The position numbers and the translations under genes were made by a program. A stretch of DNA of 64,000 nucleotides from Eledone cirrhosa. Lineage: Eukaryota. The stretch lies in contig OZ024741.1 of assembly GCA_964016885.1 (NCBI GenBank), forward strand, positions 391,282,001 through 391,346,000. Direction: 5' to 3'. Position 1 is the stretch's first letter, and each line of letters starts with the position of its first letter. The notes beneath the pieces are model-generated. The model made no database searches. It was not told the origin of the DNA and was given only the letters and a program-made list of their open reading frames with translations. Shown piece after piece: positions 6,327-59,763 of this stretch.

Positions 6327-6482
6327 GAGATTCTACAGGACTAGAACTCTTTCATTCTTTAGAAATCATCAGGAATCTGTCCTGTAGAATCTCATCTATA
6401 TTAAAACTTTTATACTCTGCTATGTATTGAGTACCTTACTTACTGTGGTTACCTCCGATTCAACCCGGAATAACTTATCTAT
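6327..6482. mobile_element. Inverted mini-element with an HHR-like motif (about 6335-6375 -); relatives at about 12005-12120 and 32644-32695
   Basis: The inverted arms gagattctacaggac/gtcctgtagaatctc flank CTGATGA-tttct-aa-agaat-GAAA on the minus strand. Flanked by TA tracts. Confidence 0.6.
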
Positions 6483-6858
6483 ATAATATATATATATATA
6501 ATTGGAAATAATCTAATCTATGGCGGTTTGCAAGCAAATTCGGCCTACTTATATGAAATGATGAGTTAGCAAAGCACTCGATAAGTTATGTCCTTAGAGT
6601 AATAACATACGTTTAAATAGCTTGACAAATCGAACATTGTGGTAGGCAAAATCTAACACACAATAATATACCAAAGTAACGATAGAACTAACAGGTTGAG
6701 AAAAATACACCTGTATATATATATATATATATATATATATATATATATATATATATATATATATATGAGTGTGTGTGTGTGTACATATACACACACTTAC
6801 ACACACACATATATATATCTATGTATATATATATATATATATATATATATATATATAT

Positions 6859-7153
6859 AAGGATTGGTGCTCTGAAATAGCGATGTATACATGAATGTAT
6901 GTATAGTATATTTGGCAATATACCGTATGTTTAATTAAAAACATTTAGAAGACCATATGATATTGGTTTGAAAGTAGTGACTATGTCACTTCTTTTCGGC
7001 GAAAGAAGGGAGAGGAGCTAACAGTCTGTTTCACGCTGTTTGGTGATCATTAGAGCCACGCACCCTCTGCTTCCGCCGAAAATTATAGAACCTGGATTCT
7101 TATAGAATTCCAATAATAATCAGGAGCTGATTATACAGAGCGATTGCCGATCC
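6859..7153 (-). mobile_element. Diverged relative of the 310-bp unit at 23931-24917, with a degenerate HHR at 7017-7056
   Basis: Shares tgctctgaaatagcgat... and ...gagcg(a/g)ttgccg(a/g)tcc. The minus strand reads gct-CTAATGA...GAAA-cagactg-TT-agc. Confidence 0.6.
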
Positions 7154-7729
7154 ATATATATATATATATATCTTGATTTTATATGTTCTGGCTTGTTAAT
7201 TTATTAACCCGTCATAGAACCACATTGGCATACGGTTGGATAATACTTGTTTCCCTATATGTATTTTTTACACGTAGGAAGTCATACTTTATTATTATTG
7301 ATCCCTCCCTAAGGTAGAGATAAAAGTTTGGCCGTTTGGACTGCTGTTATTTCTAGTGGCAGAACATTGACCTGTCCACCCTGCCTTTTGTCTTTGCACA
7401 CGGCACCAGGCAGAATTATTTCTTTCATCATCCGCTCTCATTTGGGAATGGTTTTGTATGGCGTCAGTTTGTGATTTGAACTCGGGAATTTTATATTCTC
7501 CGAGGGAGAAGAGCCTTCTGAAGATTGCTCCCTTCTCAATGAAAATCCGCTTGGATTTTCAGTTTATTCTGGAGCATGAAACCGCGGTAAAAGCACATAT
7601 AGTAAGTACAGCGAATTTTTTTTAATTTATTTTAAAACTTTTTCTCTATTTGTTAGACCTTGATTATATATATATATATATATATATATATATATATATA
7701 TATATATATATATATATATATAAAAGTTG

Positions 7730-8915
7730 AGACAGTAAACAGAAAACAAAAAAACGTGGAAGCGAGAGTGGGAGTGGGGGGATGACGTTTCGGGTATAAG
7801 CCCTTCATCGGGAGAAAAGTGGGCAGGAAGAGTGTTCCGAGGGTGTGTGGGGGAGTGGTGGGAAGACATTAAAAAAAAATATTTAAAGGGGGGGGGGGTT
7901 AAAGAGTAAAAAAATTAAAAATAAAAAGAAACAACTGGTGAAAGGGTGTGAGGCGTGTGGGGGAGGGGATGTTGGTGTGGGGAGGGCTGAAGATGGTGTG
8001 TGTGTATGTGTAGGTGTACGTGTGTGTGTGTGTGGATGTGAATATGAGAGTTGGGGGAAGAACGAGGTTCCATGTTCGGGTAATAGGGAAACCGGTGAGT
8101 ACATGGTGTGTAAGTCGTTGTGTGTGTGTGGATGGAGAGGGGTCAGAGGGGATGTGAGAGAGGGGGTGTGTGGAGTCCGGAGGCTGAGTGTGTGTGTATG
8201 TGAGGATAATCACGTGTGTGTGTGTGTGTGTGTGAGTGAGAGAGTGTGTGTGTGTGTGTGTGTGTGTGCGCGTGTATGTGCGCGTGCGTGTGTGCGTGTG
8301 CGTGTGCGTGTGTGTGTGTGTGTGTGCGTGCGCGCGTGAGTGTGTGTGTGTGTGTGTGTGTGTGCGCGTGTGTGTGTGTGTGTGTGTGTGTGTGTGTGTG
8401 TGTGTGTGTGTGTGTATCTGGGGGTTTTCCACGTACTCTGAGGCCAGATGGTGGAGATTCTGAATGTGGAAGGATGGATAGCTGGAGCGAAGGACCAGTG
8501 GTGTAAAATCCTGGTATGGTAGTGAGGAAGTGGGGAGTTGTGGGCGTGCGCGCGCAACAGGAAGTGGTCAGAGAGTCAAGGAAGGGCGAAGGAGGTGGGA
8601 GGAAGGAGATAGCAGTAGGGAGATGACAGCAGGCAGTAGTGAGGAGGCTGACAGGTATAGAGAGGTCCAGTGGACAGGGGAGGGGATGGGTAGGTGTGAA
8701 AGCTGGAGGGAAGGGGGTGGCGGTGTGGGGGTGGGGGTTGGTGTGTATATTAGTGGAGGTCTTAGTGGGATGTATGTGTGGGATGTATGTGTGGGGTGGT
8801 GGTAGAGCGGGGAGAGAGAGAGGCAGAGAGAAGGTGTTGGGGTCGGTAGAAGGGTGTGTAGTATACTGGTGTGTGTGCGTGTTTGGATATGAGTGTGTGT
8901 GTGGTAGAGTGGGTA
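7730..8915 (-). mobile_element. Non-coding (CA)n-rich PLE-derived element with an HHR-like motif at 7784-7811
   Basis: The minus strand reads CCGATGA-aggg-cttata-ccc-GAAA-cg-TC, with stem I unpaired. 8500-8700 resembles 50470-50640 and 55880-56050. Confidence 0.55.
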
Positions 8916-9038
8916 TATATATATAAGTTAATAAAAACAATGAATAAAAACAAAGAACAAGTTCCTTATATTAAAAATTCATCATTTTACGATCGTTTCT
9001 AGGATATATATGTGTTGGTATGTATATCATATAGAAAT

Positions 9039-9166
9039 TCATTTCTGAAGACAGCATATATATGTGAAGGTATGTATATTTCCTCTGATAGTTCGTAATA
9101 TTTTTACATAGATCTATATGGTATATATACCAACACATATATATCCTAGAAACGATCGTAAAATGA
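9039..9166 (+). ncRNA. Hammerhead ribozyme with a ~97-nt stem II, inside inverted mini-element 8926-9353
   Basis: tcattt-CTGAAGA-cagcatatatatgtg...cacatatatatccta-GAAA-cgatcg-TA-aaatga. Confidence 0.75.
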
Positions 9167-9414
9167 TGAATTTTTTAATATAAGGAACTTGTTCTTTGTT
9201 TTCATTCATTGTTTTTATTAATTTATCTTGACTCTGTTTTCCTATGATTTTCATCGAAAATCTTTGAATGCATCTTCTCTTTTCATGATATTTGGATTAC
9301 ATTGAGTTCTTCATGCGGATTGGACACAACCGTATATTTTGGTAGATTTATCTACACACACGCACACACACACACACACACACACACACACATATATATA
9401 TATATATATATATA

Positions 9415-57298: not shown

Positions 57299-57527
57299 CT
57301 ATAGTTCTATATTTGTATTTATAATATTTGTATTTATAAGCTTCTCTGAATAATGTTCTAAGAGATATTATTCATTGAGAAGTAATATATATATTACGGA
57401 CTAATATATATATATATATATATATATATATATATATATATATATATATATTTATACATATTGTATAAAGCTATGCTTGAAGCGAAATCCTATTTCTGTT
57501 ATATATATATATATATATATTATATAT

Positions 57528-58760
57528 ATTGGTAAACGGAATAGAAAATGCTGACAAATTGTTCACAGTGAAAAATAGTTTAATTAGGAATAAGTGATAA
57601 TTAGTAATAGTATTGGTTAGTGTACAATCTGGACACACTCCAGATACATATTTGTGCACAGGTATACAATTTCTGGACACACTCCAGATACATGTGTACA
57701 GTTTGTGCACAGGTATACAATTTCTGGACACACTCCCGATACATATTTGTGCACAGGTATTCCAATACGGCAAGGCCTAATGGATCCCTCTTGCAGTACG
57801 TACAATCTGGACACACTCACACACACCTTGGTATTATGCCAATACTATATATCATTTCACACCTTTTATTATTAAGGATTTTGATGTTCTATTGAGAGAA
57901 TCGATTTTACTGAAAATATCGAATATTGTACGCCATTTTAACAGAAATAAATACTGATCCCCCCCCCCCCCCCCCACACACACACACACATTCTCTCTCT
58001 CTCTCACACACATGCACACGCGTACATTAACATACAAAGAGACATACACACACACACACACACTTCTCCGTATAAGACAAGAGCTGAAAAAATATCTTTT
58101 AACATGTTAAAATATCCCCCACACACTTACAGACACATTCCTACTGACCATCCCTCTACCACGAATTACTCTGCTACACACACACACACACACACACACA
58201 CACACACACTACACAGACACACTTGTCTTAATAGGCATTTGAACTGTCAACAGGCTGCGGTCGCACACACATCCCTGCCGACCATTATCACAACAACGAA
58301 CCTCTTTACTACTACTACACACACACACACATATTTTTGTTGTGAAAGACTTATCTCTCAGTCAGCCGATACAAACCTACATTTGGCGCAAAATCAATTT
58401 TTTACATTCACATGACCTCTACCGACCAATTAAAATTGTTTTGACCACAAGAATTTTTGCAACACGAATTGGCGCAAAACTTATTTTAATACCGCTGGAG
58501 CCACTTTTTTAACATAAAAACAGGTAGAATACCCAAAACTAATCAGATCAGAGCAAACATCACGGACGCTCTATCTCAAAATTATTTTTGAAAAGCATTA
58601 GAAATGCGCAACCGGTAAAACTTAAAACCAAAACTTAATACTAACCAATACTATTATTAATTCTCACTTATTCCTAATTAAATTATTTTTCACTGTGAAC
58701 AATTTGTCAGCATTTTCTATTCCGTTTACCAATATGTCATAACTTGTGTGTTACACCTCT
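57528..58760 (+). mobile_element. Family B pLTR-only inverted element
   Basis: Short inverted arm at 57528-57620, local tandem repeats at 57621-57760, then the family B 3' end with the HHR-like motif and tail. Confidence 0.85.
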
Positions 58761-58958
58761 ATTCTTTTAAATATATATATATATATATATATATATATAT
58801 ATAAAAGAAATAGAATTTCGCTTCAAGCATAGCTTTATACAATATGTATAAATATTTCGTATCTCCAAAGAAATACAGTCTTAGGAAGGCGTAGCTATGC
58901 AAACACCGGGGGGGGGGCGAACGCCCTCTGGTGATGTCCAGCAGAAGTAAGGAGGACA

Positions 58959-59002
58959 ACCGTCTATGCATTTCAGGCTTAACTGGCCTTCGTCAGGCCG
59001 GT
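58959..59002 (-). ncRNA. Minimal hammerhead ribozyme
   Basis: accggc-CTGACGA-aggc-cagttaa-gcct-GAAA-tgca-TA-gacggt. Confidence 0.75.
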
Positions 59003-59297
59003 CCCTCCCACCGCTTGCGACTGCTGGACTAGAAGACAGCTGTACTTAACAAAAACAACCACAACAGATTGTCTTGCCCCAGAAAAATTTTTTATAGACT
59101 TTTGACTGAGGAATGTTCTCACAACTAACCAATGGGAGGAGAGAGTGTCCTATGATGCCGAAATTCGTTTGTTCGAATTCATATGATTCCAGTTCCTCAG
59201 AGAAATAACAACCCAACCAGGAGCTGGACATATCGGAGTATTGACGGAGTAAAACACTTTAACAACATGTGTACCTGCCTCTACCACACCAATTCGG

Positions 59298-59352
59298 ACT
59301 GCCTGAAGAGGTCACAGCCAATGATGGTTGTCACCGAAATATATATAGCAGT
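59298..59352 (+). ncRNA. Hammerhead ribozyme
   Basis: actgc-CTGAAGA-ggtcacagcca-atga-tggttgtcacc-GAAA-tatata-TA-gcagt. Confidence 0.85.
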
Positions 59353-59763
59353 ACATCTTTAATAAACGAAGCCAAATTTTAAATATTTGACTTAATTACT
59401 TTATTCCGGGGTAACCAAACCAACCTGCGTACTTCGTCGAGTGCTCCATCTGCATACTGAGGTGTCGGTAAACAACCAACATATACTCAGAATATATATA
59501 TATATATATATATATATATATATATATATATATATATATATATATATATATATATATATATGTATACACAGAGGTGTCCACTGTAAGTTGTGGGGTCTAT
59601 TCTGCATGAAGAACTCGATGTAATCCATATGTTGAAAATGTTGTAGGTTAAGATAAATCTCAGAAAACAATAAAACATTAAATGGAAAACAGAGTCATGA
59701 TATAAGTTAAAACATATATATATATAAAATACACAATTATCAAAGGTATGTGCAAGTCATTTA

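Follow-up and report, generated by a model that had tools for sequence, protein, structure and literature searches.

Analysis of a 64,000-nucleotide (nt) stretch of Eledone cirrhosa DNA (contig OZ024741.1, positions 391,282,001 to 391,346,000, forward strand; hereafter the window) indicated that the short motif YGAGTRCT, which recurs shortly before (TA)n microsatellites, forms the 3′ arm of a stem-loop with a bulge. We judge it probable, at roughly two chances in three, that this stem-loop is an RNA structure of Penelope-like elements (PLEs) of the Hydra clade and of their derivatives, and that it acts as a docking site which positions internal starts of the reverse transcriptase (RT). Conservation of the structure, its link to the Hydra clade and its spacing from insertion ends were all observed directly.

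The window is AT-rich animal DNA, dense in (TA)n, (CA)n and (GA)n tracts, between which lie numerous short repeats, commonly an inverted pair with a single-copy extension, a layout known for PLE insertions (PMC8557442). The original prediction, made from the letters alone, listed nine sites at which YGAGTRCT-like strings stand in sense orientation about 40–75 nt from the 3′ (TA)n junction of unrelated families. All nine strings are present and each is oriented toward a microsatellite junction, which at eight sites begins 44–79 nt from the motif start; the ninth, at 9303, is 59 nt ahead of a (CA)n tract that precedes (TA)n. The literal 8-mer occurs at six of the nine, the strings at 6428, 9303 and 47392 being one base off each, and further literal matches at 13390, 40609 and 46910 make nine in the whole window, every one in sense and 44–79 nt ahead of a junction. 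The placement of the motif in the single-copy tail holds for all six families with a visible inverted pair. Several of the families are indeed distinct, but sites 6573 and 46674 belong to one family (77.6% identity over 76 nt) and the hairpins at 6428 and 40368 have most letters in common. Among 67 families of junction flanks, six representatives contain the 8-mer, compared with 0.19 for dinucleotide-shuffled sequences (none of 500 shuffles gets as high), and a de novo search for gapped 6-mers ranked GAGT.C at the top (11 versus 2.74). Since the family-wise p of that search is only ~0.05, the 8-mer by itself is suggestive rather than strong, and borderline after allowing for its post-hoc choice.

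The full structure reads RCTC, a variable inner hairpin, a 2-nt bulge (mostly TY) and GAGY followed by RCT. It can be formed at seven of the nine cited sites as against 17 of 164 chance sites when spans of up to 110 nt are allowed, at five of nine against 7 of 168 for spans of up to 34 nt, and at six of nine against 0 of 164 under a stricter rule that was set post hoc. The chance sites come from scans of public collections for the motif followed by (TA)n (13 viral loci, at least 101 metagenome stretches and 58 genome contigs), where such sites are mostly coincidental, and the counts use the 168 or 164 distinct sites with sufficient upstream DNA. The two cited sites that do not conform are 47392, which is not the hairpin of its family (family E closes that 40 nt away, at 47432–47438), and 54810, which fits poorly. 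A relaxed descriptor recovered 18 hairpins in the window, 17 of them in tails or terminal repeats: 14 are no more than 100 nt from a tract, two are 101 nt from one and one sits in a terminal direct repeat. The outlier (31348–31374, +) is without RCT and away from any tract, and is probably a chance match. Families J (55033, 55636) and L (13690) use GCTC/GAGC and are missed by the 8-mer, while the long-armed hairpins of families E, G and H are missed both by the descriptor limited to 34 nt and by a covariance model; the latter recovered the family L hairpin, which was outside its training set.

When 23 hairpins were aligned, 94% of cells were paired and six of the eight pairs showed double changes, with a covariation of 0.611 compared with 0.202 in shuffles (0 of 500 reach it) and at most 0.268 in slid registers; these counts lean high because the rows were chosen with a pairing descriptor and several families from one genome record (G003) are kin. 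RNAalifold returned the identical fold, and the basal pairs co-vary as ACTC/GAGT, GCTC/GAGC and GCAC/GTGC. As the rows were picked by pairing, a pattern test that omits the inner stem counts more. Without that demand the pattern gave 27 matches in G003 and 9 for its reversed control; an inner stem of 3 bp or more was present at 15 of the 23 distinct G003 sites scored (1.4 expected) and at 5 of 25 sites in the other four genomes searched (1.2 expected, p 0.005), the five including the true hairpin of G004. What emerges is a structure whose pairs co-vary and which has the same sense as hammerhead and open reading frame (ORF). The proposal of a cis-signal for the PLE machinery remains the best reading, provided that the signal is taken to be the base-paired structure, of which the 8-mer is merely one arm: the GAGC and GTGC variants escape the 8-mer yet preserve the pairing.

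A likely owner of the structure lies within the window. Besides two Neptune-like and one Nematis-like reading frame (provisional labels, from their linker motifs), it contains an endonuclease-only PLE remnant. Hallmarks given for the Hydra clade are a C-terminal GIY-YIG domain, a CxCx5C linker, no CCHH motif, a hammerhead in the pseudo-long terminal repeat (pLTR) and (TA)n targets (PMC8557442). In the remnant the linker before GIY-YIG reads CNCVQPGMC, CCHH is absent (a single Cys lies between IVY and YVG), and the CxxC and CxH signatures around the conserved E and N appear as CRLC..E and CNH in a shifted frame; a (TA)n insertion, an inverted copy and an optional tail are all present. Its endonuclease matches locus L201 with an E of 2e-19, compared with 5e-05 for the Neptune-like protein of the window. 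The RT part is missing, the RWK and DKT motifs being present in the full relative L201/L225, and of the hammerhead the core letters were seen at ~45790–45895 and stem I was not recovered. On its endonuclease hallmarks we classify the remnant as a putative Hydra-clade PLE.

Because this remnant combines Hydra hallmarks with a degenerate hairpin in its tail, the hairpin was predicted for other Hydra-type elements. Five genome records, some with animal DNA, were searched with the remnant protein, and loci were picked by protein similarity alone: 24 matches were found in G003, one in G004 and none in G001, G002 or G006. The hairpin was then found in the tails of L201, L202, L203, L204, L206 and L212 (L202, L203 and L204 being related), its pairs including GCTC/GAGC and GCAC/GTGC, and sister copies supplied it for the families of L210, L213 and L218; none was found for L217, and L208 and L209 are cut by contig ends. 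In support of this, four of the six published Hydra consensi (PMC8557442 File S7) carry it as judged by eye, in the tails of Hydra-2_Amil and Hydra-2_Ajap, as two copies where Hydra-1_Ajap starts and, with mismatches, at both ends of Hydra-1_Crog. Ownership by the Neptune-like ORFs was rejected, as their tails are without the hairpin; so are those of the Nematis-like element, and the covariance model gave nothing above 15 bits at Neptune-like loci, including the complete pLTR-ORF-pLTR element L294. The signal therefore tracks Hydra-clade PLEs and is not common to PLEs at large, a specificity that is provisional because complete non-Hydra elements are so few.

The distance that is constrained is not the 40–75 nt between motif and (TA)n junction but the ~4–8 nt that separate an insertion end from the hairpin on its downstream side. 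Short, tail-less copies end ~4–8 nt upstream of this hairpin (hairpin 1). Three autonomous elements (L225, L228 and L229) have a second one directly before the ORF; tailed copies end ~4–8 nt upstream of it in L225 and L228, and those of L229 also end just before it. The order in these three is hammerhead, ~45–70 nt, hairpin 1, ~35–40 nt, hairpin 2 and, ~20 nt on, the ORF start, the whole order including the 5′ hammerhead being seen in L225, which is complete: hammerhead, hairpin 1, hairpin 2, ATG, ORF, hammerhead, hairpin 1 and (TA)n. Its 3′ (TA)n begins 4–7 nt ahead of the place of hairpin 2. Of 11 families with an automatically found second end, eight have ranges covering 5–6 nt upstream of a hairpin (null mean 0.85); the misses are window A, L277 and window C, the last of which shows 5–7 nt by direct comparison. 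Tail-less copies of family B end 5–8 nt ahead of the hairpin at 40349–40375, and direct comparison gave 5–6 nt for family E, 4–7 nt for family H, 4 and 7–10 nt for family L and 4–6 nt for the inverted arm of the Hydra remnant. The ranges are wide because 1–4 nt of TA-like microhomology usually lies at the junction. A contig from organism B stops 5 nt short of the family A hairpin, and the loose-end consensus of family A (1044 reads) enters TA ~2–5 nt before it, with an agreement of 0.63 in a mixed population. The 5′ end of one near-complete Hydra copy (L228:2597-2636, −) starts one base inside hairpin 1, and might reflect the copying of more than one unit along a circular or tandem template.

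Taking PLE insertion ends to be RT start sites, as we infer, the RT-endonuclease would bind the hairpin through its 4-bp basal stem, 2-nt bulge and unpaired RCU. The enzyme would nick (TA)n DNA, the nicked end could pair with 1–4 nt of UA-rich RNA next to the 5′ side of the hairpin, and cDNA synthesis would begin ~6 nt upstream of the foot of the hairpin. Tail-less ends would result from starts at hairpin 1, and starts at hairpin 2 would yield ends that carry hairpin 1 plus 40–75 nt, i.e. the tail noted earlier. The position of the ends, 3′ of the hammerhead cut, would require a template that spans this cut, presumably uncut read-through RNA or a religated circle. Binding of a protein, action at the level of RNA and internal initiation at the hairpin are what this scheme would require. 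A more general form, in which a portable docking hairpin downstream of the priming site serves as a ruler, with a telomerase-related RT starting ~6 nt upstream of one or the other of two copies, depending on which is bound, seems to us an even bet. If true, it would account for the PLE tail and would let unrelated non-coding RNAs hitch-hike via a 25-nt structure.

Besides the upward lean of the covariation counts, several observations weigh against this interpretation. Predicted pairing of the basal stem is low (0.00–0.42) in window families A, B and D and in the Hydra remnant, where a protein would therefore have to stabilise the fold; it is below 0.5 in 3 of 13 G003/G004 hairpins, and no single fold beat its shuffles. 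The two window A copies end 17–20 nt and one L277 end lies 33 nt upstream of the hairpin, while the inverted arm of family F ends inside its own hairpin. No sense hammerhead was found in families D and J, and no clear hairpin was seen by eye in Hydra-1_Amil or Hydra-1_Obim. The short families A–L have no coding similarity to the Hydra ORF (tblastn with the L201 protein matched the window only at 44282–45143), and it is for this reason that we call them truncated or non-autonomous Hydra-associated ends on structure, not protein members. Among the 40 of 74 read variants listed for the region 6327–6713, 6579 C>A in family D (from three start sites) and 6424 G>A in family A (an inner C-G) break pairs unless compensated. 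It should also be noted that end positions cannot separate internal priming from RNA cleavage.

Hence the hairpin might be an RNA-processing signal, at which the endonuclease of the element or a host nuclease cuts the transcript ~6 nt upstream and the RT primes at the new 3′ end, as in long interspersed nuclear elements (LINEs). Identical genomic ends are predicted by this possibility, and an RNA-level structure with G-U pairs fits it; yet the sole PLE studied in vitro initiates internally on uncut RNA (PMC11167929), and the bases at the presumed cut are unconserved apart from being UA-rich. The structure is also unlike twister-sister-like ribozymes (PMC11620745), as its stems are joined by the 2-nt bulge only, without their 5+6-nt internal loop and CA cleavage site, and no Rfam match came near the gathering score among the 150 of 214 matches listed, which are microsatellite or palindrome artefacts. 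We consider such processing unlikely. Recognition could also take place in DNA, with the GIY-YIG endonuclease recognising the site as duplex or extruded hairpin and cutting just upstream to resolve an insertion intermediate. Craig et al. ascribed the tail to endonuclease cleavage (PMC8557442), the endonuclease of D. virilis Penelope required tail sequence for plasmid cutting (cited in PMC11167929), and GAGYRCT with the next base is near-palindromic in some families. That the inner stem stays paired while its sequence and length vary freely (spans of 15–79 nt), that only the sense strand admits G-U pairs and that tail-less copies, although they never include hairpin DNA, end at a fixed distance from it, make DNA-level recognition quite improbable in our view.

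Expression control, whether by promoter, translation start, RNA stability or hammerhead folding, would find a natural place in hairpin 2, ~20 nt ahead of the ATG in L225 and L228, and ends could then cluster through RT or polymerase stops at a stable fold or through UA-rich microhomology that chances to lie before it, of which 1–4 nt of TA is seen at the ends. However, the hairpin is retained in short window families without a coding match, and the spacing is equal for both hairpins and across animals despite plentiful UA-rich stretches nearby, so that little likelihood attaches to a purely regulatory role. Chance, or post-hoc choice of a short motif near abundant microsatellites, would agree with the family-wise p of the best 6-mer and with the frequency of coincidental motif sites in public collections, but features on which the selection did not draw, namely the partner strand, the inner stem and the end spacing, together with a prediction that held in other animals, refute it for the structure, and we give it hardly any credence. 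It may still apply to site 47392, which is either a decayed second hairpin or incidental.

The docking interpretation may be compared with known systems. The Hydra-clade PLEs of PMC8557442 show inverted copies and an optional tail as in the window, with tails of 30–40 nt there and ~75–160 nt here; the words hairpin and stem-loop do not occur in the main text of that article. In the Poseidon PLE of Anolis, the only one studied in vitro, two internal RT starts bound the tail, targets are likewise AT-rich and RNA 3′ of the starts is required, and the study, in its available text, mapped the two starts and no recognition element (PMC11167929). Poseidon belongs to another clade, and Hydra-type elements differ in carrying one structure twice ahead of the ORF, with an end immediately 5′ of each copy. 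Metazoan retrozymes without a long terminal repeat (non-LTR retrozymes) are similarly short, non-coding, hammerhead-bearing PLE derivatives, but they form tandem arrays, whereas the motif-bearing families of the window are mostly single or inverted (TA)n insertions and not head-to-tail units; no common downstream hairpin is mentioned in the available text of either source (PMC7229834; bioRxiv 10.64898/2026.07.22.740005). Our literature search, outside which lie Repbase entries and subscription papers that may mention the hairpin, found no description of it, and it is apparently undescribed so far.

Small conserved structures, often bulged, that recruit their own RT and fix its start are familiar from the 3′ tails of LINEs and short interspersed nuclear elements (L2, CR1, RTE and the R2 3′ untranslated region) and from hepadnaviral epsilon. 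LINE stem-loops stand upstream of the start and are copied into every insertion, and epsilon supports protein priming from its bulge; the hairpin described here differs in lying downstream of the start, being omitted from the copy that it would start. It is best read as a variant of such RT-recognition RNA elements. The hairpin bears on how the RTs of PLEs, the closest relatives of telomerase, select their template and start internally: it offers a defined candidate of 25 nt that covaries, and its measurable spacing rule opens PLE template choice to test. It may further serve as a diagnostic for assigning non-coding, (TA)n-inserted invertebrate repeats to their driver clade and, if portable, suggests a way of loading chosen RNAs onto a PLE-type enzyme.

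Table 1. Hairpins, hammerheads and PLE frames of the window (cited sites are the nine of the original prediction)
Feature	Position	Strand	Remark
Family A hairpin (ACTC, 3-bp inner stem, TT bulge, GAGT-ACC)	6414..6435	+	cited site 6428
Family A hairpin, second copy	12058..12079	+	
Family A inverted arm with hammerhead core	6327..6372	-	read by eye
Family D hairpin (ACTC, 4-bp inner stem, TC, GAGT-GCT)	6573..6600	-	cited site 6573
Family D hairpin, diverged copy (GCTC/GAGT, G-U pair)	46653..46681	+	cited site 46674
Family H hairpin, long inner arm (span 73 nt, TT, GAGT-TCT)	9231..9310	+	cited site 9303
Family H hairpin, second copy (span 79 nt, TC bulge)	59610..59695	-	
Family H type I hammerhead, long stem II	9045..9170	+	read by eye
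Family B hairpin	13390..13416	-	
Family B hairpin	40349..40375	+	cited site 40368
Family B hairpin, third copy	46910..46936	-	
Family B type I hammerhead, U3-A8 core	40235..40328	+	predicted cleavage after 40323
Family L hairpin (GCTC, TA bulge, GAGC-CCT)	13690..13738	+	covariance model, 15.6 bits, E 0.09
Family E hairpin (span 69 nt, TT, GAGT-CAT)	18809..18884	+	
Family E hairpin, second copy (GAGT-CAA)	47432..47495	-	
Cited GGAGTACT	47392..47399	-	no full hairpin; missing from other family E copy
Family E type I hammerhead, long stem II	18640..18748	+	read by eye
Family C hairpin	22983..23005	+	cited site 22998
Family C hairpin, second copy	40609..40631	-	
Family C type I hammerhead	22869..22934	+	core by pattern, stems by eye
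Family F imperfect hairpin (ACTT, 3-nt bulge)	54810..54832	-	cited site 54810; exception to model
Family F hammerhead on inverted arm	54859..54900	+	read by eye
Family J hairpin (GCTC, 7-bp inner stem, TT, GAGC-ACT)	55033..55061	-	outside 8-mer
Family J hairpin in upstream 190-bp direct repeat	55636..55664	-	
Family G hairpin (ATTC, 7-bp inner stem with G-U pairs, TC, GAGT-GCT)	59403..59445	+	cited site 59438
Family G type I hammerhead	59298..59352	+	predicted cleavage after 59347
Putative Hydra-clade PLE remnant, with endonuclease-coding 3′ ends as an inverted pair flanked by (TA)n tracts	43474..46061		tail on + arm only
Broken GIY-YIG frame, CxCx5C linker, no CCHH, frameshift before CxxC/CxH end	44240..44800	-	
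Degenerate hairpin in Hydra remnant tail (TCTC, TT, GAGC-AAA)	45960..45992	+	
Neptune-like tail hairpin region	26972-27044	-	
Neptune-like tail hairpin region	28995-29067	-	
Neptune-like tail hairpin region	58732-58770	+	
Neptune-like tail hairpin region	50726-50764	-	
Neptune-like PLE frame	20231-21295	+	
Neptune-like PLE frame	52676-53896	+	GIY-YIG domain match
Nematis-like PLE frame	2145-5046	-	

The hairpin-bearing ends of the window (Table 1) are short, PLE-like, inserted in (TA)n and mostly accompanied by a hammerhead; a sense type I hammerhead upstream of the end is full in families B and G, was read by eye in A, C, E, F and H, and is partial in L. In family D (6501–6713, 46551–46750) a hammerhead-like core lies opposite the hairpin strand (46627, −), its stem I not being found, and hammerheads with the U3-A8 core variant (TTGA.AA) at 40240, 39292, 23444, 27148 and 29172 belong to family B and one Neptune-like family. 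Family J (54970–55762, −) is pLTR-like, with its 190-bp direct repeat flanking 413 bp of non-coding DNA. Family K (23933–24917) is the sole two-unit family, with retrozyme-like units of ~310 bp that stand in tandem and in inverted orientation and all have a hammerhead core; a related copy lies at 6860–7153, and only a hairpin stub is present beyond the tail-less end. By eye and without a chance control, a loose motif GG-N2-5-ACCT was seen ~10–25 nt ahead of the far junction in several families, in tails ending at 6485, 12119, 40419, 18964, 47338, 54773 and 59562. The tails of both Neptune-like families contain another small hairpin, GTGT-NNN-ACAC followed by CTC, 13–14 nt past the tail-less end, which is possibly the Neptune counterpart of the Hydra hairpin.

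Reads and contigs over 6327–6713 showed families A and D to be high-copy (7581 reads, 8978 contigs). Other variants among those listed fall in the loop of the D hairpin (6586, 6589, 6591 and insertions), in its bulge (TC to TT, 6580) or change A-U to G-U (6582, 6603), and the family A variant 6421 is in the loop. Opposite-strand joints were rejected as inverted junctions, as they mostly reflect the layout of the window copy, and loose ends were used alone.

In searches of other DNA, the structure pattern gave seven loci in genome contigs, including L194 and L197, and a family B 24-mer had no match in the pattern search; the covariance-model search scored 150 of 558–3392 candidates per genome and is not a census. 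Related-locus searches gave no match for the Neptune-like protein and none in viral contigs, and a protein database search returned one match, without DNA context. Several of the records filed as prokaryotic genome bins (G001–G004 and G006; e.g. L118, L225, L226) contain animal-like, (TA)n-rich DNA, likely host contamination, and PLE-like matches occur in G001–G004, 97 of them in G003. Hairpin-like sites (13 and 24 bits) in repeats flanked by TA were seen at L118:587-607, L146 and L123 (G001) and at L300:1498-1539 (G006), with no hammerhead or Hydra ORF nearby.

The window also holds a region (25638–29283) in which several elements are duplicated locally at 99% identity, flanked by huge degenerate (TA)n arrays; this duplication and a 200-base N gap at ~33510–33710 could be assembly artefacts. 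Fragments of non-LTR retrotransposons comprise 3′ ends at 25638–26322, 27646–28332 and 34499–35280, which we take to be CR1-like, and an RT with zf-RVT at 16130–17842 (+). At 60602–63808 (+), a 1068-amino-acid open frame encodes an APE endonuclease, an RT and a PHD finger, presumably from an RTE-like element.

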